Below are positions 6,222 to 16,326 of a DNA stretch of 64,000 nucleotides, in pieces. This DNA is from an uncultured beta proteobacterium (GTDB lineage: Bacteria; Pseudomonadota; Gammaproteobacteria; Burkholderiales; Burkholderiaceae_C), in assembly GCA_963740395.1 (NCBI GenBank), contig CAVUEP010000013.1, positions 7,290 to 71,289 on the forward strand. The letters are read 5' to 3'. Position 1 is the first letter of the stretch, and each line of letters opens with the position of its first letter. Made by a program: the position numbers and the translations under genes. The notes under the pieces were generated by a model. The model worked only from the letters and a program-made list of their open reading frames with translations, made no database searches and was not told the origin of the DNA.

Positions 6222-7310
6222 ATGAACCCAGAGATTCCTGGCACCCCCACCAGCGCGGAGCCCGACGCAGCGCCCGCCGTGGCTGGCGCCGATGCGCCGC
6301 AGGCTGCCACGACCGAAGCCTCCCCCTTGCCGTCGGGTGACGCCCCCGCGCCCGACGCGGTGCCCGACGATTTGCGCGAGCTGCCACCCGATGCGCCCTC
6401 TGAGGCGACACCCGCTACCCCGGTGGAGGCCGGCGAGAGCGCCGTCGCGCCTGCAGCCGCCGCCGAAGCAGGCAAACCGGGGCTGACGCCGGCTGCCTGC
6501 GCCACCCGCTTGGCCGAGTTGTTCCCCGCGTTGTTCATTGCGCAGGGTGCGCCCGGGCCGGCCAAGCCGATCAAGCTGCGCATCCACGCCGACATCCAGG
6601 CGCGCGCGCCGGGCGTCTTCAGCAAGCGCGTGCTGGGGCTTTTCTTCAGCCGCTACACGACGACGAACGCCTACCTGAAGGCGCTGGCCGCGGCGCCGCA
6701 CCGGTTTGACCTCGACGGCGAGCCCGCGGGCGAGATTGCCGCCGAGCACCGCCAGGCCGCGACCGAGGAACTGGCGCGCCGCCATGCCCTGGCCGCGCAG
6801 CGGCGTGCGGCGCAGCGCCCTCCTGCGCGACGCGAGGCACAGGCACCTGAAGGCGCATCAGCGCCAGGCGAGCGGCGCGAGCCGCGCCCCGCGGGTCAAC
6901 GCGATCCAGGCCAGGACGCCCGCCTCGCCGAGCGTGCGGCCCGGCCACAGCGCCCCCCGCAAGCGCCGCGCATGCGCGACGACCGGCAGCGGCCCGAGCG
7001 TGCAACTGGCGCACGGCCGCCTCGCAGTGGCGAGCAAACAGCGCCGCACCGCCGCGCCGAGCGTGCAACGCCAGTGCGCGACACCGCCCCCCCTGCCGCA
7101 GCCCTGCCCACGGATCCGGCACAGCGCGAACGCGCGATGCTGCTGCGCAGCTTCGAGTCCAGCCCCTTGAGCAAGGCCAATTTCTGCGCCCTCAAAGGCC
7201 TGAGCGAGGCGACGCTGGATGCCGCGCTCGAGCAGGCCCAGGCGGAGCGGGGTGGGCACGACGCAACGTCCCATGCGCCGCCGCCTCAACGACGCAGCGG
7301 CAGACGCTAG
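6222..7310 (+). CDS. ProQ/FinO domain RNA-binding protein with Ala/Pro-rich N-terminal and Arg-rich C-terminal extensions
   Basis: The internal ATG (aa 68 of the track ORF) gives MNPEIPG. The core is LAELFPALF...PIKLRIHADIQARAPGVFSKRVLGLFFSRYTTTNAYLKAL, the ProQ/FinO fold signature. Confidence 0.7.
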   Translation: MNPEIPGTPTSAEPDAAPAVAGADAPQAATTEASPLPSGDAPAPDAVPDDLRELPPDAPSEATPATPVEAGESAVAPAAAAEAGKPGLTPAACATRLAELFPALFIAQGAPGPAKPIKLRIHADIQARAPGVFSKRVLGLFFSRYTTTNAYLKALAAAPHRFDLDGEPAGEIAAEHRQAATEELARRHALAAQRRAAQRPPARREAQAPEGASAPGERREPRPAGQRDPGQDARLAERAARPQRPPQAPRMRDDRQRPERATGARPPRSGEQTAPHRRAERATPVRDTAPPAAALPTDPAQRERAMLLRSFESSPLSKANFCALKGLSEATLDAALEQAQAERGGHDATSHAPPPQRRSGRR

Positions 7311-7362: not shown

Positions 7363-8760
7363 TCAAGGCGTCACGCCGGTCGGACAGTCCGCCCAGGCCC
7401 GGGCATGCAGCGCCACGCGGCAGGCGCTTTCGTAGCGGATACCTCCTACCAGAATCTCTCGCTTGCTGATGGTCGTGTTCAGGCAGACACCCAGCCAGTC
7501 GATCGCCACCGAGGCTTCATTGGGCAGCCCGTCTTCCCAGCCGTTGATCGCGGTAACCGCCCCTGCGAGCACGACGACCTCCATAGTGTTCAAGGCGCAC
7601 TGCGGATTGACGCGAACGCTCCTCGGTAGCTGACCGGCTCGGGCCGGATTCGACGTCGAACGCGCATTCACGGCCAGCGCTTGTTCGAAGCGCGGGCCCG
7701 GAAACCAGCGTGACTCGGGCACCTCAACCCGCTCGCGTGCCGCGACGTACTGCGCCTGCACCGCTGGGGTCCTTCTGCCGTCTGCGGCGACCACGGTCAC
7801 CGAGGCCGCATGATCGACCGCACCGCGGATGTCAGCAGGCATGGTCAGCTCGATGTGCGTCATGGTCCATGCCGCGAACGGTGGCTTGAGCTTGCCGCCA
7901 GGAAACTGCCCGATGATCTCGACCGCACCAGGGCGCTCCCCCAGGCACAGGCCGTCAAGCGTCACCGTCTTGCCCGGCCTCAGCGGACCGGACACCTCAC
8001 TGAGCGTCGGCGGTCCCTTGTCGAGACACAGGAGCGCCCGCGCATTCGGCACAGATCCTTTCGAGATCGCGTCCAACCGCAGGGGCGGTTTGATGGATGC
8101 CAACTCCCCGACGCGTGCCTGCGGCGGCGCGGCGACGCCAAGGCGGCTCGCCGGCTCGTTCGACGCCACCTGCGGCATCCGCCGCGACAGCGGTACGCGG
8201 CCCGTATTGGCCTGCGCCAATACGGCAGACTTGCGGGTGCCGGACTTGATGGTCTTGGGTGGGCCGGCGAGCTTCGCAAGTTCGGCCAGGATCTCCTGCT
8301 TGATCTCTCCCGCAGGCACCGGTTTGCCGCCAACAATGATGATCGCGCGATCGTCCAGTTGCAGCAGGTCGTTTGGCGCTGGCGCCTGCGCAGCAGACGG
8401 CGGTATCGTCGGAGGTCGCTCCGTAAGTGTGGCGGGTGTGTCGCGTCTCACAGGCGTGGTCGGTACCTTCGGCGGCAGCGGTTGCGGGTTCAGCGCGCGG
8501 CGATCGAGCGGACTGGCCGAAGACTTCGGCGGCAGCGGTTGCGGATTCAGCGCGCGACGATCGAGCGGACTGGCCGAAGACTTCGGCGGCAGCGGTTGCG
8601 GATTCAGCGCACGACGCTCGAGCGGACTCGCCAAAGACTTCGGCGGCAGTGGTTGCGGATTCAGCGCACGTTGGTCGGCTGGGCTGACTGGCGCCTGCGC
8701 GCTGGCTGCGGCAATGGCCAGCGCGGCAATGATGCCTACGATGACGGGGCTCGGATTCAT
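7363..8760 (-). CDS. Secreted protein with four tandem 19-aa Pro-rich repeats and an IPT/TIG-like C-terminal region
   Basis: The start is at aa 52 of the track ORF: MNPSPVIVGIIAALAIAAASAQA, a signal peptide. The repeats read RALNPQPLPPKS(L/S)ASPL(E/D)R. I recognised no enzymatic motif. Confidence 0.5.
   Translation of the reverse strand: MNPSPVIVGIIAALAIAAASAQAPVSPADQRALNPQPLPPKSLASPLERRALNPQPLPPKSSASPLDRRALNPQPLPPKSSASPLDRRALNPQPLPPKVPTTPVRRDTPATLTERPPTIPPSAAQAPAPNDLLQLDDRAIIIVGGKPVPAGEIKQEILAELAKLAGPPKTIKSGTRKSAVLAQANTGRVPLSRRMPQVASNEPASRLGVAAPPQARVGELASIKPPLRLDAISKGSVPNARALLCLDKGPPTLSEVSGPLRPGKTVTLDGLCLGERPGAVEIIGQFPGGKLKPPFAAWTMTHIELTMPADIRGAVDHAASVTVVAADGRRTPAVQAQYVAARERVEVPESRWFPGPRFEQALAVNARSTSNPARAGQLPRSVRVNPQCALNTMEVVVLAGAVTAINGWEDGLPNEASVAIDWLGVCLNTTISKREILVGGIRYESACRVALHARAWADCPTGVTP
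8467..8670 (-). repeat. About 3.6 copies of a 57-bp in-frame tandem repeat inside the 7363..8760 CDS
   Basis: Plus-strand unit: cttcggcggcagcggttgcggattcagcgcgcgacgatcgagcggactggccgaaga. Copies start near 8467, 8524 and 8581, with a partial copy at 8638, and are nearly identical. Confidence 0.85.
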
Positions 8761-8933
8761 TGCGTTTCCTTCGGCGTAGGTAGACGAGAAGTGGCCGTCG
8801 CGCGTGGACCTCTGATCGCAATATGCGTGGACAGCCTCACCGTGCCGGCTTGAAGGGCAACAGGGTTGCCTTGCACAAGGCACGGCGTCATCGCACTCTC
8901 GGCAGACGCGCATGCCGCCGGCCCTGACAGCGG

Positions 8934-9533
8934 CTACAGGCGATTGGCCGCCGCACGGGCAAGTTCTTCGAGCGCCTTGAGCGCCTCGGCTCTGTCGCGC
9001 TGCGACAACTGACTCGAGAACAACCGCACCTGGCGCTGTCCCACCTGAACCACGACCTGTGCCACGTCGTTCAGGATCCCGCGCGCCTCGTCCTTGCGTT
9101 CGACGATCGCCATGGCGCGATCCCCGACGCCGCTGAGCGGCTCGAAGCGCACTGCCTGCTTCGCACTCGGCCGCATCGGGTCGATAGCGCCGTCAACCAT
9201 GCCGCGCGACTCGTCCGCCCAGGACGCCAGTTCGTGGTTCGAGTACTGCACGTAGAACGTGCCGCCAGGATGACCCCGAACGCAGGTCACGATGCCATGC
9301 TTTTCAAGGTTGCGGTCGAGCTGGCCGGGCTTGGCCTGCGCGAACACCTTGCGCACCTGCGCGTCAGAGACCAACGTGCAAGGGTTGCTTATGTCGCCCT
9401 TGCCGGCCTGGGCCACTGCAGTCGGCGCCACCGCGGGCTGCGAGGTCGAAGTCGGCGCCTCTTGCTTCGAGCACGCGGCCGCAATGAACGCCGTGACCAG
9501 TGCGGCGAAGAGATGAAGGCGAATCGAATCCAT
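8934..9533 (-). CDS. Hypothetical lipoprotein
   Basis: The start is at aa 131 of the track ORF: MDSIRLHLFAALVTAFIAAACSK, a lipobox of type IAAAC. 199 aa with no recognisable domain. Confidence 0.55.
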   Translation of the reverse strand: MDSIRLHLFAALVTAFIAAACSKQEAPTSTSQPAVAPTAVAQAGKGDISNPCTLVSDAQVRKVFAQAKPGQLDRNLEKHGIVTCVRGHPGGTFYVQYSNHELASWADESRGMVDGAIDPMRPSAKQAVRFEPLSGVGDRAMAIVERKDEARGILNDVAQVVVQVGQRQVRLFSSQLSQRDRAEALKALEELARAAANRL

Positions 9534-9601
9534 TTGAATCTCCAGATGGGCTGACTCCTTGGGCCTGTGCGGCAACCCCGCTCGCACCGTGTGCCGTCGG
9601 T

Positions 9602-11218
9602 TCATTGCTTGGGGCGCAAAGACGACGGCGCCGTCGTTGCGGCGTTCGACCATGTGCGTACCGGCATCTCGGCAGCGCTTGGCGTGCGCACACGATCCAT
9701 GACACGCTGCTCGGGTGATGCGCCCGGCGCGCCTGCCACGGCAAATGCGATCCATGCACCCGGCTCCGCCTGGACAGGCACCATTGCGCGCGCGCGCACC
9801 CGCCACTCGCCGGCTACGGCAGTCATCTGCCCCGGCGTTCCCGGTGCATGGCCCCCCCAGCCGGTATAGCCGACACCCTCGATGGCTGCGGCGCCCACGG
9901 GAACGCTGGTGACGAACACCCACGCGCCCGCTGGGTTCCGGCGCTGGAACTGGAGCTCGTACGAAGTCACGGCACTGCCCCCGGGCGGCGCAACGCGAAT
10001 CTTCATTGCCGTCTGCGGCGCGTGTGTGCTGCCGGCCCTCGGCTCGACGATGCTGGGGGCCCCGATGACCGCTGATTGACCTGTGCCAGCGACATTCGCG
10101 GCCACGGCCGCGGGCGCTCGCACCGTTGCAGGAGGGCTCGGCGCTGTGAAGGCGGGCTCCTGGCTTGCACGGGAGTGCCCAGAAGATTTGGTTGGCGCCT
10201 TGAATGCACGCTCTGGCGTTGCGCTCGCCTGTGCAGCGCTCCTGCCCTGAACCGCAGCGAGCACCTCCACAGCACAGGTCGGTCCGGCATCATTAACGGC
10301 GCAGACGCGGAAGGCATGCGGTCGGCGCGGATCGAGCGGCGCCGACTTGAACTGGAATGCAAGGCGGGTCTTGCCGGCCTGTGCGCCCTTCGGACCGGGC
10401 AGTGATCCTTCGACAAGCCATGGGCGACCGGGCCCGGGCGGGCTCTGGCGCTCGACCGTGTAGGAGTCGACCGGCCTTGATTGCGACTGGTCCGGTGTGT
10501 TCCACTCGATCAGGATCGGTGTGAGTTCCGCATCCAGTTTCGCCGGCGCGCGCGCGGCCACATCCAGAGGCGCTCGCGGCGGCGTCAACGAGGCCGGCGT
10601 GCCGCATATCAGGCCGACCTTCTCCAGCCACCAGCCCGCATGGCCGTGGATGCCGACGGCCACCAGGCCCGGCGGGCATGTTTGCGATTCGCGTTTTTGG
10701 GAGCCGCCCGGAAAGATCGGGGCCTCGAACCTCGCGTCTGGATAGTCGCCGCGGCCACTCTGCCCAGCGCCAGCCGCGCCGCAGAAGATCTCGATCGCGT
10801 TGACGGCGGGGTTCCCACTGGTACCAGGTGACACTTCCGAGACCACGGTCACGCCCAGGACGATCGGCCTGACTTGCGTGCAGTTCAGGCGCCCTACATT
10901 CATTCCGCGTGCACTGCCCCCGGCGGTCGGGACAGCGACTGCCTGGCCGACGCGGCCGGCGCCGAGTGCGGTCGCGCACAGGGGCCAGAGCGAGTTCACG
11001 TCATCGCCCGAGCGCAGGCCGAAGCCGACCACCTGCTGCTCTGCGGCGCAGCGCGCGGTGAACGGGGCTCCCTTGCCTGCCAATCCGAGTGCGGGCAGCA
11101 CGCTGTCCGCAGACACGGATCCCAGCGCCGTGCCGGCGAGTGCAAACACCAGGCTCACCCTGCCGCGCACCGCGTGACCCGATACTTTCTGGCCGACACG
11201 CTGACGGTGGCGCGCCAA
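9602..11218 (-). CDS. Secreted hypothetical protein with two fibronectin-III-like beta modules
   Basis: An N-terminal hydrophobic signal-like stretch (VSLVFALAGTALGSVSA) is present. FN3-like segments include DSYTVERQ...FRVCAVNDAG and TSYELQFQRRN...WRVRARA. The start codon is uncertain. Confidence 0.45.
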   Translation of the reverse strand: MARHRQRVGQKVSGHAVRGRVSLVFALAGTALGSVSADSVLPALGLAGKGAPFTARCAAEQQVVGFGLRSGDDVNSLWPLCATALGAGRVGQAVAVPTAGGSARGMNVGRLNCTQVRPIVLGVTVVSEVSPGTSGNPAVNAIEIFCGAAGAGQSGRGDYPDARFEAPIFPGGSQKRESQTCPPGLVAVGIHGHAGWWLEKVGLICGTPASLTPPRAPLDVAARAPAKLDAELTPILIEWNTPDQSQSRPVDSYTVERQSPPGPGRPWLVEGSLPGPKGAQAGKTRLAFQFKSAPLDPRRPHAFRVCAVNDAGPTCAVEVLAAVQGRSAAQASATPERAFKAPTKSSGHSRASQEPAFTAPSPPATVRAPAAVAANVAGTGQSAVIGAPSIVEPRAGSTHAPQTAMKIRVAPPGGSAVTSYELQFQRRNPAGAWVFVTSVPVGAAAIEGVGYTGWGGHAPGTPGQMTAVAGEWRVRARAMVPVQAEPGAWIAFAVAGAPGASPEQRVMDRVRTPSAAEMPVRTWSNAATTAPSSLRPKQ

Positions 11219-11303
11219 TGCATTTGCGACGGGGAACTCGGCGACAGCGTCGTTTTCGGTGCGGTGCGTGATTCACTTGCTCCTGTTCAGGGCCTTGTTG
11301 CGC

Positions 11304-12065
11304 TCACGGTTGGAATCGCTTCGACAGCTCCAGCACTGCGTCGTTGATCGCCGCGCGCAACGCCGAGTCGACGCCCTCGCGCCGCGTCTGCGACGCCTGC
11401 ACGTCCGGGGTGAATGTCGAACTACGGCCCCGTGGCGCCATGACGTTGCTGATCAGGTTGCCGATGCCGCTGATGCTGGATGCGTCGCCCTTCATCGACC
11501 TGCTGATCGTGATCGCGTCGACGATGTCGCCGCTGCCGGCATCGACGACGCGCACGTCGATTGCGATCGAGTCACGGTTGGTGGCACCACCGACTTGCAT
11601 GCCCGCGATTCCCACGCTTGCCGAGCGCTGCACCTCGCCGACATTGGCTTCCGATACGGTGCCTTCGAATATGTACTGCGCCGGCCGTAGTCGTCGATTG
11701 GCGACGTTTGCGGTCGCCAGACCCTGGGCACCGATTTGCTTCTCGTGGATCACGCCCTCGTTGAGGCGTGCGCGCTCAACGACGCGGAACTGCCCGCTCT
11801 GAACCAGGGCGGTCTTGAACATGTCGGTCGCGGCACGGCCATTGACTTCGTTCACACTCGAGCGGAACTCGTAGATCGTGACGGCCACGCGCTCGCCCTG
11901 CTTGCGCGGCAGCTTCTTCAGTGTCTGCGTCGTTGGTGCCGCGTCGGCGCGTGGCGCCTCGTATGGCATCCCCGCACAACCTGCCAGGCCCAGCGCCGAC
12001 AGCGCCGCCGCAAGCACACCGTCCCGGACTACGGCCAGGTCCAGCAGACTATGTTTCGCTCTCAT
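11304..12065 (-). CDS. CsgG/HfaB family outer-membrane secretion-channel lipoprotein
   Basis: The start is at aa 124 of the track ORF: MRAKHSLL...LGLAGCAG, a lipobox. By eye it aligns to E. coli CsgG blocks: VAVTIYEFRS..., TALVQSGQFRVVERARLNEGVIHEKQI, YIFEGTVSE...IAIDVRVVDAGSGDIVDAITISRSM. Confidence 0.75.
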   Translation of the reverse strand: MRAKHSLLDLAVVRDGVLAAALSALGLAGCAGMPYEAPRADAAPTTQTLKKLPRKQGERVAVTIYEFRSSVNEVNGRAATDMFKTALVQSGQFRVVERARLNEGVIHEKQIGAQGLATANVANRRLRPAQYIFEGTVSEANVGEVQRSASVGIAGMQVGGATNRDSIAIDVRVVDAGSGDIVDAITISRSMKGDASSISGIGNLISNVMAPRGRSSTFTPDVQASQTRREGVDSALRAAINDAVLELSKRFQP

Positions 12066-12132
12066 CTCGGCCTCCAGTGGACGCAGGCAACGGTTGTCGA
12101 CGCGATGTGGACGCTGACGGCTGCGCGCATCG

Positions 12133-12480
12133 TCACCGCCCGTCCGCGATCCCTGGCGCAGAGGCATCCGGCACGACCAGCGTCTGCCGCGCCGTCCGGA
12201 TCCAGATGTAGCCCGGCGGTTCCACGTCGACATCGAGGTAGAGGACTTCGCGGCGTCGCAGCATTTCCAGCAATGTCGACAGCGCCGAGGGCCGTAGAAA
12301 GCCGCGCGCGCCCTCACTGCCGTGCAGCCGAGGCGGGGGTACCGCTGCCGCTTCGGCGACGAACCCGAACTGGGCCAAGCGGCGACCCGCGCCATCCCAC
12401 AGCTCGAGCCGGCCGGGCTGGCCCGTGCCGCCATCGATCGAGTACTGGAAATGCGCGATGCGCTGGGTGCTGACCGCCAT
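12133..12480 (-). CDS. Hypothetical 115-aa protein between the regulator and the CsgG-like gene
   Basis: This is the C-terminal part of track ORF 12133..12993, from MAVSTQRIAHFQYSIDGG. Codon bias is plausible, but there is no signal peptide and no recognised domain. Confidence 0.35.
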   Translation of the reverse strand: MAVSTQRIAHFQYSIDGGTGQPGRLELWDGAGRRLAQFGFVAEAAAVPPPRLHGSEGARGFLRPSALSTLLEMLRRREVLYLDVDVEPPGYIWIRTARQTLVVPDASAPGIADGR

Positions 12481-12545
12481 GCGCACAGCTTCCGCCCGGC
12501 GATCTGACACCGGACTCACAGAACGCTGAAATGGCCCGCCGGCGC

Positions 12546-15500
12546 TCAGCCGGCCAGGTGAAGCGCCTCGCGCATCAGTGTTTCGAGGGCTGCACCGGGC
12601 TTGCGGCCGATCAGGATCGACAGCACCTCGCGGCATCGGCGGAACACCTGCACCGCCTCCGCGGGTCGATTCTGTTGCAACAGACAGCGCATCAGGCTGC
12701 AGTAGGCGTCCTCGGCCAGGTTGTCGTGCTCCAAGGCCAACCGGTAGACGCGTTCGGCATCGGCCCAGCAGCTCAACGCTTCGAGACGCTGGCCCGCCCG
12801 ACGCATGGCACGCAGAAACTGACTGCTGCACCGATCGGCAATGCCAACCGCCCACGGTTCGGCTGGATTGGCACCGGCAAACCCACCGCGGTAAGTACTG
12901 CAAAGTGCGGCGCTGAGTTCTGAGACCTGGTCCGCGTCGAGGTGATCCAGCGTCTCGCTGTCGATGCGTTGCACCAGCGCGGCCAACGCCCACACATCGG
13001 CCCAGACCAGCTGTCGATCGAAGCCGAGTTGGCCCTCGCGCAGCACGAGCGCATCGTGGCGTCCGAGCAACTTGCGAAGCCGGTAGAGCGTCGTATCGAA
13101 CGCCGCGCGCGCCGCGTCGCCATCGGCCTCAGGCCATAAGCTGTCGGCCAGCAGACTCACGTCAACGGCGATCGATCCCGAGCCGACAAGCAGCTTGACC
13201 AGGTCCATCGGTTTGCGGTTGCCGCGCTGCGCAACGGGCAGCGGCGCATCGTTGATCAGTATCTCGAAATCGCCGAGGGCCCGCACCCGAACCGGCCACG
13301 GCCACTCAGCCTGCGAGTTGTCTGGCGCCGCCAGTGCACGGCGAGAAATCGCCTCGCGCACGAACTCGGTTTCGATGCCGCGCGCAAGCGCTTCGGCGCA
13401 CAGTTGCGCGGCAAGGCGCGGCAAATGGTTCGCAAAGGCCCACCAGTTGTGCTCACGGCTGCGCGTCAGCACGCGCGCGAGCAAGGCCATGTCGAGTGGA
13501 TGTCGCCGGCGGATCTGCTCGGCGAGCGGCGCCATGTCGGCGAGTATCTCCAGAAAATCGCGTCGCATCGCCTGCAGCGGCGCCGCGTGCGCGAGTGCGA
13601 CGCTGCGCGCCTCGTTCTCGCGACCGAGCGCGATCAGCACCTGCACACGCTGCAAATCGAAGATCCAGCGCTCTGCTGGTGGGAACTCACCGTCGCGCGC
13701 TGCCTCCAGCGCGAGATCGGATGCGACCAAGGCCTGCTGTGGCTTGCCGGCCAGCAGCAGCTGCCGCGCTTCGAATTGCAGCAATCCCGCCCGCTGAGTC
13801 GGCAGCCGGGTGTCTGTGACCTCGCGCATGCTGCGCAGGTACTTCTCTGCGGCGGCGATATCTCCGCGCGAGAACATTGACGCGACAAGGTAGCTCAACG
13901 CGGCGTATGCGAGCGCGTCGATCGCGTTGCTGCGTGCGATGTCGACGGCATGTTCGAACAATTGCACCGCGTCGCCCTCCAGCACGCCGTGGCGGCGCAC
14001 GGGCATGCGCGGGGCAACTGCCGCCAGCGCGATGTACCAGCCCGCCAGCGCGCCGGCACTCAATTCGTTGCTCGCCAACCACGGCAGCGACAGATCGACC
14101 GATCGCTCGAGCAGTTCGCGATCACCCCCTCGGGAGGAAAACTCGATCAACGCGATGCCGGCCTCGACAGCATCGTTGGCCTCGATGGACTGGTCGCCGT
14201 TCGGCGCCTCGGTTCCAGCCGCCAGCGTCTCGATGATCGAAGCAACCGCGTCGCGAGCACGGGCATCGTCGGCAGCGAAACTGAACGAAACCTCGTTCGC
14301 GCGCAGCCACACGAACGCAACGCGCAAGCGCTCGGTCGCGGAAGTCGGGCGCAAGCCGAGCGCCATCAGCTCGCTCATGCGTGACTGCCAGAGCTCTCGT
14401 CCGTGAAACACGGACCACCCAGAAATCATGGTGCCGAGCGCGGTCGCGCACGTGACCAGGGCGCGCTCCTTGTCATTGCGCGAAACGAAGCCAACGTAGG
14501 CACGCTCGAAATGAGTCAGTGCCGTTCCAGATGTGCGCCGCGCCATCGCTCGACCAATGACTTCCTGCATCGCGGGCTCGCTGGCAGCAAGCGCGGGCGG
14601 CAAGAGTCGCGCGGCTTGCAACAGCTCACCTTCACGGCGTGCACGCAGCAGCCCCGCGGCCTGCCCGATGCAGCCGTGCATCGCCGACGAGACATCGCCT
14701 GCCCGCACGAACACACTGACTGCGGTCTCCAGATAGCCACAATGCAACGCGAAGTCCGCCACGCGCAATTGCGCTGCGTGTCGCCAGGCGGCGTCACCCA
14801 TCTGGTCGAACACGACGCGTAGCGCGGCCCGGAACAGGTCGTGCAGGCGCCACATGGGCGGCCGCGTTGCCAGCAATGTGATAAACAGATGCCGTCGTTG
14901 CAGATCCCGAATCCACGCTACCGCTTCGGCGTCGTCGCTGAAGGCCGCGCATGCGTCGGCGCCAAACTGCGGCAGCCAGCTCAGCATCGCCAGCAACTCG
15001 CGCTGGCGCAGGGGCAACGGATTCACGAAGCGCAACGCCAGGTATTCAAGCAGGTCGTCGCGCATGGCCTCCGGCGCCTGGCGTGTAGCGACTCCGGTGC
15101 GCCCGAGCAGGACCAGCCCAGCCGCCCAGCCGCCGGTGTCGGCGTACACGGCCGCGAGCGACTCATCGTCCCCCTTGGCGCCTATCAACTCGCGCGCTTC
15201 CTGCGGCGTGAAGGCCAAGCTTGCGCCATCAACAGTGGCAAGGCGTCCGGCAGAAACGAGTTCGAGCCAATCCGTTGGTGGATCACGATGACCCAGCACG
15301 AGCACATGGCTGCCAACGGGAGCCTCCTCGATTGCCTTGCGCAACGCCGTGGCGAAGGCAGAACTCTGGGCGGCCTGGGTATCGTCGAAAACGAGGACGC
15401 TTCCCGTGCGCAGTCGATCCCAAAACACACGAAAGAACGACTGCCAGAAGAGCTCAAGCCGCCCGGCCCACACTTCACCCCAGGCAACAGGCTCGGCGCG

Positions 15501-15860
15501 CGTAGCCCGCCGTCGCGGCCGCGGCGTGAGGGCGGCGGCCAAGTACGACGAGACCACCCCTGGATCGTCATCACCGGCGTCAACGCGATAGAACACCGTA
15601 TTGCCTGGCCGCGTCTGCGTCCACGTCGCTGCAAGCAAGGTCTTGCCGCTGCCTGGCGCCGCGGCCAGCCATAGTCCTGCCGACTCGGCGGCCAAGGAGT
15701 CGAGCATTTGATGGAGCCGCGGGCGCACGACGGCACGCCCAGCGCGTGGCCGCGCCAATTTCGCCAAGGTTGGCACAGTCGCGGTCGCGGCGGCAGGCGC
15801 CATGGACATGGGTTCGACTTCGCGTCCGACGACGCGTGTGAGACGAGGATTAGCCATCAT
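12546..15860 (-). CDS. Large STAND-type regulator: N-terminal P-loop ATPase (MalT-like), helical/TPR middle, C-terminal winged-helix plus BTAD (SARP-like) module
   Basis: Walker A is AAAPGSGKTLLA. The C-terminus reads VRVRALGDFEILINDAPLP...MDLVKLLV...LWPEADGDAARAAFDTTLYRLRKLLG, followed by BTAD-like helices. I placed the start at MMANPRL (aa 108 of the track ORF). The upstream extension runs into the proQ remnant. Alternative starts are 15809 and 15803. Confidence 0.7.
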   Translation of the reverse strand: MMANPRLTRVVGREVEPMSMAPAAATATVPTLAKLARPRAGRAVVRPRLHQMLDSLAAESAGLWLAAAPGSGKTLLAATWTQTRPGNTVFYRVDAGDDDPGVVSSYLAAALTPRPRRRATRAEPVAWGEVWAGRLELFWQSFFRVFWDRLRTGSVLVFDDTQAAQSSAFATALRKAIEEAPVGSHVLVLGHRDPPTDWLELVSAGRLATVDGASLAFTPQEARELIGAKGDDESLAAVYADTGGWAAGLVLLGRTGVATRQAPEAMRDDLLEYLALRFVNPLPLRQRELLAMLSWLPQFGADACAAFSDDAEAVAWIRDLQRRHLFITLLATRPPMWRLHDLFRAALRVVFDQMGDAAWRHAAQLRVADFALHCGYLETAVSVFVRAGDVSSAMHGCIGQAAGLLRARREGELLQAARLLPPALAASEPAMQEVIGRAMARRTSGTALTHFERAYVGFVSRNDKERALVTCATALGTMISGWSVFHGRELWQSRMSELMALGLRPTSATERLRVAFVWLRANEVSFSFAADDARARDAVASIIETLAAGTEAPNGDQSIEANDAVEAGIALIEFSSRGGDRELLERSVDLSLPWLASNELSAGALAGWYIALAAVAPRMPVRRHGVLEGDAVQLFEHAVDIARSNAIDALAYAALSYLVASMFSRGDIAAAEKYLRSMREVTDTRLPTQRAGLLQFEARQLLLAGKPQQALVASDLALEAARDGEFPPAERWIFDLQRVQVLIALGRENEARSVALAHAAPLQAMRRDFLEILADMAPLAEQIRRRHPLDMALLARVLTRSREHNWWAFANHLPRLAAQLCAEALARGIETEFVREAISRRALAAPDNSQAEWPWPVRVRALGDFEILINDAPLPVAQRGNRKPMDLVKLLVGSGSIAVDVSLLADSLWPEADGDAARAAFDTTLYRLRKLLGRHDALVLREGQLGFDRQLVWADVWALAALVQRIDSETLDHLDADQVSELSAALCSTYRGGFAGANPAEPWAVGIADRCSSQFLRAMRRAGQRLEALSCWADAERVYRLALEHDNLAEDAYCSLMRCLLQQNRPAEAVQVFRRCREVLSILIGRKPGAALETLMREALHLAG

Positions 15861-16136: not shown

Positions 16137-16326
16137 ATGCGCCGGGCCGGCCAAGCCGATCAAGCTGCGCATCCATGCCAAACCCCGGACGCACGCGCCG
16201 GGCGCTTATGCCAGACCCGTACTCAGCCCTCTATTCAGTCGCGACAGGAAGCTGCGCGCCCACTTGACGGCGTTGCCTGCCGCGCTCGAGCAGGCCCAGG
16301 CGGAGCGCCGCGGCAACGGCCGCTAG
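16137..16326 (+). pseudogene. Decayed, internally deleted partial copy of the ProQ/FinO gene at 6222..7310
   Basis: 16142..16175 is identical over 34 nt to 6553..6586, the PIKLRIH coding block. 16278..16307 is identical over 30 nt to 7220..7249, the proQ 3' end. Both are in the same orientation, and the sequence between them is divergent or deleted. Confidence 0.6.

Follow-up and report, generated by a model that had tools for sequence, protein, structure and literature searches.

A rare accessory island pairs a divergent, non-curli CsgG-family lipoprotein and three exported partners with a separate regulatory module in an uncultured beta proteobacterium

The window analysed here is a stretch of 64,000 nucleotides from contig CAVUEP010000013.1 (C13) of an uncultured beta proteobacterium of the Burkholderiales, with a guanine-cytosine (GC) content of about 68%, in a 3.3-Mb metagenome-assembled genome that is 86% complete. 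Six minus-strand open reading frames occupy positions 7363-15860 of the window with intergenic gaps of 65-173 nt, and all the gene calls of a first-pass annotation, which had described six co-oriented genes, were reproduced. The block is a rare, horizontally acquired accessory island of about 9 kb composed of two modules. One module comprises a large transcriptional activator and a 115-residue protein (u115), whereas the other comprises a CsgG-family lipoprotein, a second lipoprotein (lip199) and two Sec-exported proteins (p538 and p465). The four envelope families were found again as a set in at least four independent loci from metagenomes. Our leading reading, which we hold tentatively, is that the CsgG-like lipoprotein is an outer-membrane-associated ring where p465 and p538 are exported or displayed; it is doubtful, however, that the protein forms a pore for secretion. 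No name or description of the cluster was found in Pfam, NCBIfam, PADLOC, the PDB or the literature searched.

CsgG is the gated channel of curli secretion and is also used as a sequencing nanopore. To our knowledge, very little is known about CsgG-family proteins that lack curli partners. The CsgG-like lipoprotein of the window (253 amino acids; 11304..12065, minus strand) matched PF03783 with 73 bits against a cut-off of 20.8, over model positions 30-199 of 210, and the genome-wide scan gave the same match. It carries the lipobox LAGC, and Cys30 is kept in at least 90% of 55 relatives. The protein belongs to a clade of 641 proteins (E<=1e-10, 50-71% identical), nearly all of them metagenomic, and a profile built from 55 members retrieves E. 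coli CsgG from the PDB with an E-value of 1e-13. Using the AlphaFold monomer model, which has a predicted local distance difference test (pLDDT) value of 81.5, all of the top 25 Foldseek matches were E. coli CsgG structures, with 6l7c and 4uv3 as the best, E-values down to 2.8e-13 and a TM-score of about 0.55. A second tier of matches comprises PelC, GNA1162 and HpaA, at E-values of about 1e-6 to 6e-6. The CsgG-like call, on which the first-pass annotation had staked its proposal, is thus upheld by both the profile search and the fold search. Judged by the equivalog models, however, the protein is orthologous to neither curli CsgG nor HfaB, as it scored 24.1 bits against NF011731 (cut-off of 505) and 14.9 bits against NF037935 (cut-off of 300).

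The three partners and the CsgG-like protein all bear Sec or lipoprotein signals. The modular protein p538 (9602..11218, minus strand) has 538 amino acids, or 522 amino acids in the database copy, which starts 16 codons later. It consists of a Cys-containing repeated N-terminal domain followed by two fn3-like beta modules, the fn3 match of 23.2 bits lying below the 25-bit cut-off, and has just 8 relatives in 5.8 billion proteins. The lipoprotein lip199 (199 amino acids; 8934..9533, minus strand) has the lipobox AAAC and scored 27.9 bits against DUF3558 (PF12079, cut-off of 34.1). Its relatives in loci L017 and L056 are also weak matches, and at these scores we call lip199 DUF3558-like, not a filed member of DUF3558. 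Searches of the PDB by sequence found nothing for lip199 or the p538 family.

The last gene of the block encodes p465 (465 amino acids; 7363..8760, minus strand), whose family of 76 clusters has no Pfam domain. Its disordered, proline-rich N-terminus is followed by a small conserved alpha/beta unit (DRAIIIVGGK...GPPKT), a linker and two beta domains, and the AlphaFold model is disordered over residues 1-130 and reaches a pLDDT of about 95 over residues 245-465. A 57-bp in-frame tandem repeat within the gene (8410..8694, minus strand; four copies in register, 69-95% identical) encodes RRALNPQPLPPKSxASPLx in each unit, so that the N-terminal region carries successive LNPQPLPPK units. The first beta domain is IPT/TIG-like and the second is a beta-sandwich with conserved cysteines. 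An IPT/TIG fold is supported by the model: Foldseek matched cyclodextrin glucanotransferase (CGTase) domains D-E and IPT/TIG domains with E-values of 4e-5 to 8e-5, and the profile search of the PDB picked out CGTase domain D with an E-value of 0.0075 and an IPT/TIG protein with one of 0.022. Membership by sequence is below threshold, with a weak Pfam match (PF01833, E-value of 0.008) in one of 47 family members. The cysteines C272, C388, C426, C447 and C459 are invariant or nearly so, which fits an extracytoplasmic protein. The C-terminal motif CPxG(I/V)xP (residues 459-465) is invariant or almost so across the family and is kept in a distant relative at locus L041 (...ECPAGVVP), and may serve as a tail for recognition or sorting. 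Based on the predicted folds, p465 and p538 are folded extracytoplasmic binding-type proteins and not amyloid subunits. IPT/TIG, fn3-like and carbohydrate-binding module (CBM)-like folds are typical of surface proteins.

The association of these four families was examined at 29 loci with a gene of the CsgG-like clade (7 species genomes and 22 metagenome contigs, about 20 distinct after near-duplicates were removed). The proteins of the loci were clustered, and relatives of the window genes were sought by tblastn and hidden Markov models. In L017 all four relatives are present, with identities of 67% (CsgG-like), 58% (p538), 50% (lip199) and 38% (p465). L056 has the CsgG-like protein (62%), p538 (59%) and lip199 (75%), with p465 not found. 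L033 and L030 encode the C-terminal module of p538 alone (46% and 42%, respectively), along with the CsgG-like protein (53% and 47%), lip199 (38% and 34%) and p465, which is 43% identical in L033 and present in L030 as two copies of 52% and 38%. In L032 (CsgG-like 58%, p465 44%) and in L014 from the same genus (CsgG-like 57%, p465 present), neither p538 nor lip199 was found. A p465 relative lies within 10 kb of the CsgG-like gene in L014, L017, L028, L030, L032 and L033, and, starting from p465 alone, a CsgG-like gene was found within 10 kb on three of four long contigs. The lip199 homologues of L056, L017, L033 and L030 always share a cluster with the CsgG-like gene, and the p538 homologues of L017 and L056 adjoin it. 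Gene order and regulators differ between the loci, indicating that the association is more than the shared ancestry of one contig and pointing to a functional link. Likewise, p538 and p465 are so rare that their repeated finding with one CsgG clade is meaningful. The first-pass annotation had looked to co-conservation of all six genes; this was found for the four envelope genes, whereas the regulator and the 115-residue gene form a separate conserved pair.

A large dedicated regulator stands beside the CsgG-like gene in nearly all loci long enough to judge, and the loci fall into two types. Type A loci (L005, L006, L009, L018, L020, L021, L024 and L026) have a BTAD-AAA_16 regulator followed by a fixed series of proteins without Pfam domains. 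This series includes a 58-residue cytoplasmic protein (motif WHVV.E..GQR..LGG..ELIR), a protein with four transmembrane segments, a 210-residue secreted protein and a Cys-rich secreted protein of about 900 residues that ends in LRF.C...G..RCE......V.QC. Type B loci have an extracytoplasmic function (ECF) sigma factor (PF07638) and a membrane Ser/Thr kinase with TPR, then the CsgG-like gene, often a protein of about 550 residues, and p465 relatives; in the kinase, a long TPR region, predicted to face the periplasm, comes after a predicted transmembrane segment. The window belongs to type B, although here, as in L031, the sigma/kinase pair gives way to a regulator of the MalT/BTAD type. Genes for a homologue of apolipoprotein N-acyltransferase (Lnt), for LemA or for an M48-like membrane peptidase adjoin the CsgG-like module in type B loci (L030 2738-4360; L017 15110-16564; L056 6400-7830), which hints at lipoprotein processing or envelope quality control.

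Two further observations concern the clade itself. Close relatives in L008 (55%) and L010 (74%) are on contigs binned as Thermoanaerobaculia and Gemmatimonadota, reflecting either horizontal transfer across phyla or binning errors. In addition, the genome of the window encodes a paralogue of the CsgG-like protein (42% identical; contig C8, 38585-39283; L002/L016), 2 kb from a SARP-type regulator of 1117 amino acids (41171-44524) with an N-terminal winged helix. The genome therefore holds two regulator-linked CsgG-like modules.

The regulator of the window is a STAND-type transcriptional activator of 1104 amino acids (12546..15860, minus strand). Its BTAD domain was matched over residues 955-1098 with 62.1 bits (cut-off of 22.1), and its N-terminus contains a P-loop NTPase with a partial match to NF003420 (MalT; 89.6 bits, residues 33-391). 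The protein thus runs from a MalT-like P-loop NTPase through a helical/TPR region to a winged helix and BTAD at the C-terminus. The adjoining u115 (115 amino acids; 12133..12480, minus strand) is a cytoplasmic protein of a rare unnamed family. The GC content of its gene by codon position, 0.74/0.54/0.82, is as expected of coding sequence. No signal peptide and no family match were found for u115, and 19 distant homologues of similar size were found among 1.8 billion representative proteins. None of these homologues occurs in any other CsgG-like locus fetched. In a genome of a different family (G167, locus L062), a u115 homologue (9167-9457) directly follows a BTAD regulator homologue (9548-11653) of 701 amino acids with TPR_MalT, winged-helix (Trans_reg_C) and BTAD domains; this regulator and the C-terminal 470 residues of the window regulator share 32% identity (E-value of 6e-44). 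A secreted protein of 125 residues comes after the u115 homologue there. A homologous regulator also adjoins the p465 relative in L031. This pairing in G167 and the absence of u115 from the other CsgG-like loci indicate that the regulator forms a distinct module with u115, joined here to the envelope set; for the same two reasons, u115 was rejected as a part of the envelope system.

Several features mark the block as an island. Two pairs of direct repeats bracket the six genes, 6553-6696 with 16142-16285 (73% identical) and 7210-7260 with 16268-16318 (82% identical). An intact proQ-like gene lies on one side, and on the other side, at the far edge of the island, are decayed copies of two proQ segments (16142..16318, plus strand). 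The GC content at third codon positions (GC3) is 0.76-0.82 in the six genes, compared with 0.85-0.92 in genes slightly further along the window. Of 29 other genomes from the genus, 3 have the CsgG-like gene, which is absent from all 31 of the additional relatives searched; p538 was found in none of 60 relatives' genomes, and the p465 family in none of 400 species genomes at the order level or 120 at the family level. The repeat borders, the lower GC3 and the sparse distribution indicate that the six genes were acquired together and that few sequenced species have them. The comparison with empty sites was uninformative, as the ferritin-like flanking gene is itself present in just 3 of the 29 genus genomes. 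Carriage by plasmids is unsupported, with no tblastn match of the CsgG-like protein in 72,556 plasmids, and an anti-phage defence system was rejected, since none of the six proteins matched in PADLOC. Scans for promoters and terminators were uninformative, with zero predicted promoters and two terminator-like sites, a yield lower than expected from shuffled sequence.

The motif LNPQPLPP of the p465 repeats was followed beyond the island. It is exact in 24 of 76 members of the p465 family, within otherwise variable disordered regions, and in its own genome it occurs in p465 alone. It is also found at the C-terminus of the family of about 550 residues (L017, L040), and variants occur in a 108-residue secreted protein encoded at L005 and L006, both of type A (LNPQPEVPSK) and in a p538 relative (LVPQPLPPK). 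A degenerate DNA pattern matched in 18 of 400 other Burkholderiales genomes, against 9 with a reversed control pattern. Nine of the 18 matches read LNPQPLPP, followed by K or R in seven, and four of the 18 fall in the mature part of double-glycine-leader peptides encoded next to HlyD and C39-ATP-binding cassette (ABC) exporter genes, by which the peptides are presumably exported. These peptides (e.g. ...ETVNGG/WCGTPWPG...ALNPQPLPPKSLAAFEIQM) are found at L047 8835-9095, L048 6629-6985 (minus strand), L049 181-438 and L050 2142-2387, and represent an unnamed exported family in four other Burkholderiales genomes that has the motif in common with p465. Their possession of the motif suggests that LNPQPLPP acts outside the cell, where it is probably used. 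CsgG itself recognises a short linear cargo peptide, CsgA N6 (PMC6957492), which is a precedent for motif-based docking. The idea that LNPQPLPP docks specifically on the CsgG-like protein in this way is weakened by the nine sampled motif-bearing genomes, in which the clade is absent while G001 served as positive control. On these sequence comparisons we conclude that LNPQPLPP is a genuine short linear motif, which belongs to exported proteins and peptides in general and is not a private address label for the CsgG relative. No description of the motif was found in the literature searched, and it offers a separate testable lead on the recognition of exported proteins and peptides in Burkholderiales.

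Based on these results, we propose a model of the island. The cytoplasmic STAND/BTAD activator, together with u115, would most likely switch on the downstream genes. These encode the second module: the CsgG-family lipoprotein, the DUF3558-like lipoprotein and two Sec-exported proteins with predicted beta-sandwich folds. The CsgG-like lipoprotein would assemble into a ring that sits at the inner face of the outer membrane or spans it, and p465 and p538 might be exported or docked at this ring and so reach the cell surface. There, p465 would act as a stalked binding protein with its IPT/TIG head on a proline-rich tether, and p538 as a second surface protein. The earlier suggestion that the neighbouring proteins are cargos or accessories of a CsgG-like pore gains from the profile match, the fold and the co-conservation of four genes, and loses from pore features that are partly missing and from relatives of the cargos that occur without the clade; p465 and p538 are possible candidate cargos of a CsgG-like pore.

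A number of observations weigh against the proposed export ring. The constriction of CsgG is formed by a loop with Tyr51, Asn55 and Phe56 (PMC6957492), and the profile-to-CsgG alignment places an 11-residue deletion exactly at this loop. The first transmembrane hairpin (TM1) is aligned, conserved and modelled as a hairpin, but it is uniformly hydrophobic at just positions 151, 153, 156 and 158, flanked by near-invariant E144, Q146, R147 and N163, invariant D165 and R/K at 164. This leaves about three lipid-facing rungs, compared with five read off the aligned E. coli sequence. The region of the second hairpin (TM2) is modelled as an amphipathic helix (residues 201-212), and its periodicity is that of a helix and not of a strand, with a hydrophobic moment (muH) of 1.47 at 100 degrees and 0.13 at 170 degrees. 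The reduced hydrophobicity of TM1, with about three rungs between conserved charged residues, makes a canonical 36-stranded pore unlikely. The cluster encodes no other outer-membrane barrel, and p465 and p538 are predicted to be folded and disulfide-bonded, unlike the unfolded substrates of curli CsgG. In addition, L031 combines a p465 relative and a window-like regulator with no CsgG-like gene within 10 kb, and two nearly complete genomes without the CsgG-like clade encode a distant p465-like protein (L041, G224) and a relative of the family of about 550 residues, F23 (L040, G164), respectively. As modelled, the clade has no gate and probably lacks one hairpin, and looks intermediate between CsgG, with its 36-stranded barrel, and peripheral rings like that of PelC.

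A close rival, which we regard as doubtful yet well worth weighing, holds that the CsgG-like lipoprotein faces the periplasm as a ring or scaffold of the kind seen in PelC, PqiC and LpoB, without crossing the outer membrane. On this view the four proteins would make up a complex, in the periplasm or at the inner leaflet, that maintains or remodels the envelope or senses stress, with the proline-rich segment of p465 as a periplasm-spanning tether. The lost constriction loop, the amphipathic helix at TM2, the confinement of TM1 hydrophobicity to the tip and the second-tier Foldseek matches to PelC, GNA1162 and HpaA all fit this possibility, but the model agrees better with the membrane form of CsgG (TM-score of 0.54) than with the pre-pore form (0.42), and far better than with PelC (E-values of 1e-13 and 1e-6), and the long TM1 hairpin is retained and conserved. 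Lipoproteins with the common alpha/beta core do include rings without membrane-spanning segments (PMC13631591, PMC12141448). The sister loci, for their part, contain the M48-like peptidase, LemA and Lnt genes, and their ECF sigma factor and transmembrane TPR Ser/Thr kinase are a typical arrangement for envelope signalling (PMC8999054, PMC13147305), whereas the IPT/TIG, fn3 and CBM-like folds and the motif held in common with exported peptides better suit an extracellular destination.

It is improbable that the six genes are mere neighbours on an island, without a common mechanism, with export by general routes (Sec plus the type II secretion system or Lol) and with an unrelated function for the CsgG-like lipoprotein. 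The p465-like and F23-like proteins in genomes without a CsgG-like gene, the lack of conservation of u115 and the regulator with the envelope genes, and the very variable gene content around the CsgG-like clade are in keeping with that explanation, whereas at least four independent loci unite the four families although the gene order has changed, and p465 and p538, although extremely rare, are found with one CsgG clade. A curli-type or holdfast-anchor amyloid fibre system with diverged subunits has nothing but the CsgG/HfaB family membership of the lipoprotein in its favour and is close to refuted: the curlin, CsgE and CsgF models (PF07012 (Curlin_rpt), PF10627 and PF10614) and the HfaA and HfaD models (NF037934 and NF037936) had no match across the 86%-complete genome while the E. 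coli and Caulobacter controls were positive, the scores against the CsgG (24 of 505 bits) and HfaB (15 of 300 bits) equivalogs are far below the cut-offs, and the neighbours are large globular beta-sandwich proteins and not Gln/Asn-rich repeat subunits. A curli or holdfast system was rejected on these grounds. The first-pass annotation was therefore right in seeing no CsgA, CsgE, CsgF, HfaA or HfaD, while nothing in the cluster favours its surface-fibre reading: neither curlin-like nor Hfa-like repeats were found.

A bolder form of the export proposal, to which we give little credence at present, is a new CsgG-derived machine of the outer membrane: an ungated ring, with a hairpin and an amphipathic helix per subunit, that exports or holds folded disulfide-bonded proteins at the surface, is switched by a sigma/kinase pair or a STAND protein, and uses LNPQPLPP as an extracellular recognition motif in common with double-glycine peptides. 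Whatever its function, the populous clade of 641 proteins is newly defined here as nearly always regulator-linked, with one sub-type that travels with three fixed exported partners. If the CsgG-like protein is a true channel, it would widen the cargo range of type VIII-like secretion and could offer a wide-bore nanopore scaffold; if it is not a channel, it records a stage between CsgG as a pore and rings that stay peripheral, such as PelC.

Among known systems, curli CsgG (type VIII secretion) is the best structural match, sharing PF03783, the N-terminal lipobox, the alpha/beta core and the aligned TM1 hairpin with the CsgG-like protein. Each subunit of CsgG contributes two transmembrane hairpins, i.e. 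four strands, resulting in a 36-stranded barrel (PMC13631591), whereas the CsgG-like protein is about 20% identical, lacks the constriction loop and has an amphipathic helix where the TM2 hairpin would be. The curli system is under the control of CsgD and includes CsgA, B, E and F, none of which was found here; the neighbours are instead proteins with predicted folded beta-sandwich domains, and control lies with a STAND/BTAD activator or with the pair of ECF sigma factor and kinase. The HfaA-HfaB-HfaD system of Caulobacter similarly encodes a CsgG-family lipoprotein beside non-curli exported proteins, which in that case reach the cell surface, but it differs in the HfaB model score of 15 bits against 300 and in HfaA and HfaD, which were not found in the genome.

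The lipoprotein rings PelC and PqiC have no membrane-spanning part (PMC13631591), and dock on the PelB porin and on the MCE tube, respectively (PMC12141448, PMC13631591). The CsgG-like protein resembles them in its lipoprotein alpha/beta core (Foldseek E-value of about 6e-6) and in its reduced membrane-active elements, which make a peripheral ring plausible. It differs from them in that the cluster has no porin or MCE gene and that the long CsgG-type hairpin, absent from those rings, is kept. Closer at hand, type A loci have a CsgG-like protein of the same clade (50-67% identical), also without a gate, a large BTAD-type STAND regulator and exported proteins without Pfam domains, although their partner families are wholly distinct and none is present in the window. 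Compared with classical SARPs, the regulator of the window has the reverse domain order, with the NTPase first and BTAD last. Finally, EcfP/PknT and EcfK/PknS are ECF sigma factors controlled by Hanks kinases, and the sister type B loci are similarly headed by an ECF sigma factor and a membrane Ser/Thr kinase (PMC8999054, PMC13147305), whereas the window uses a cytoplasmic STAND/BTAD activator with a 115-residue partner.

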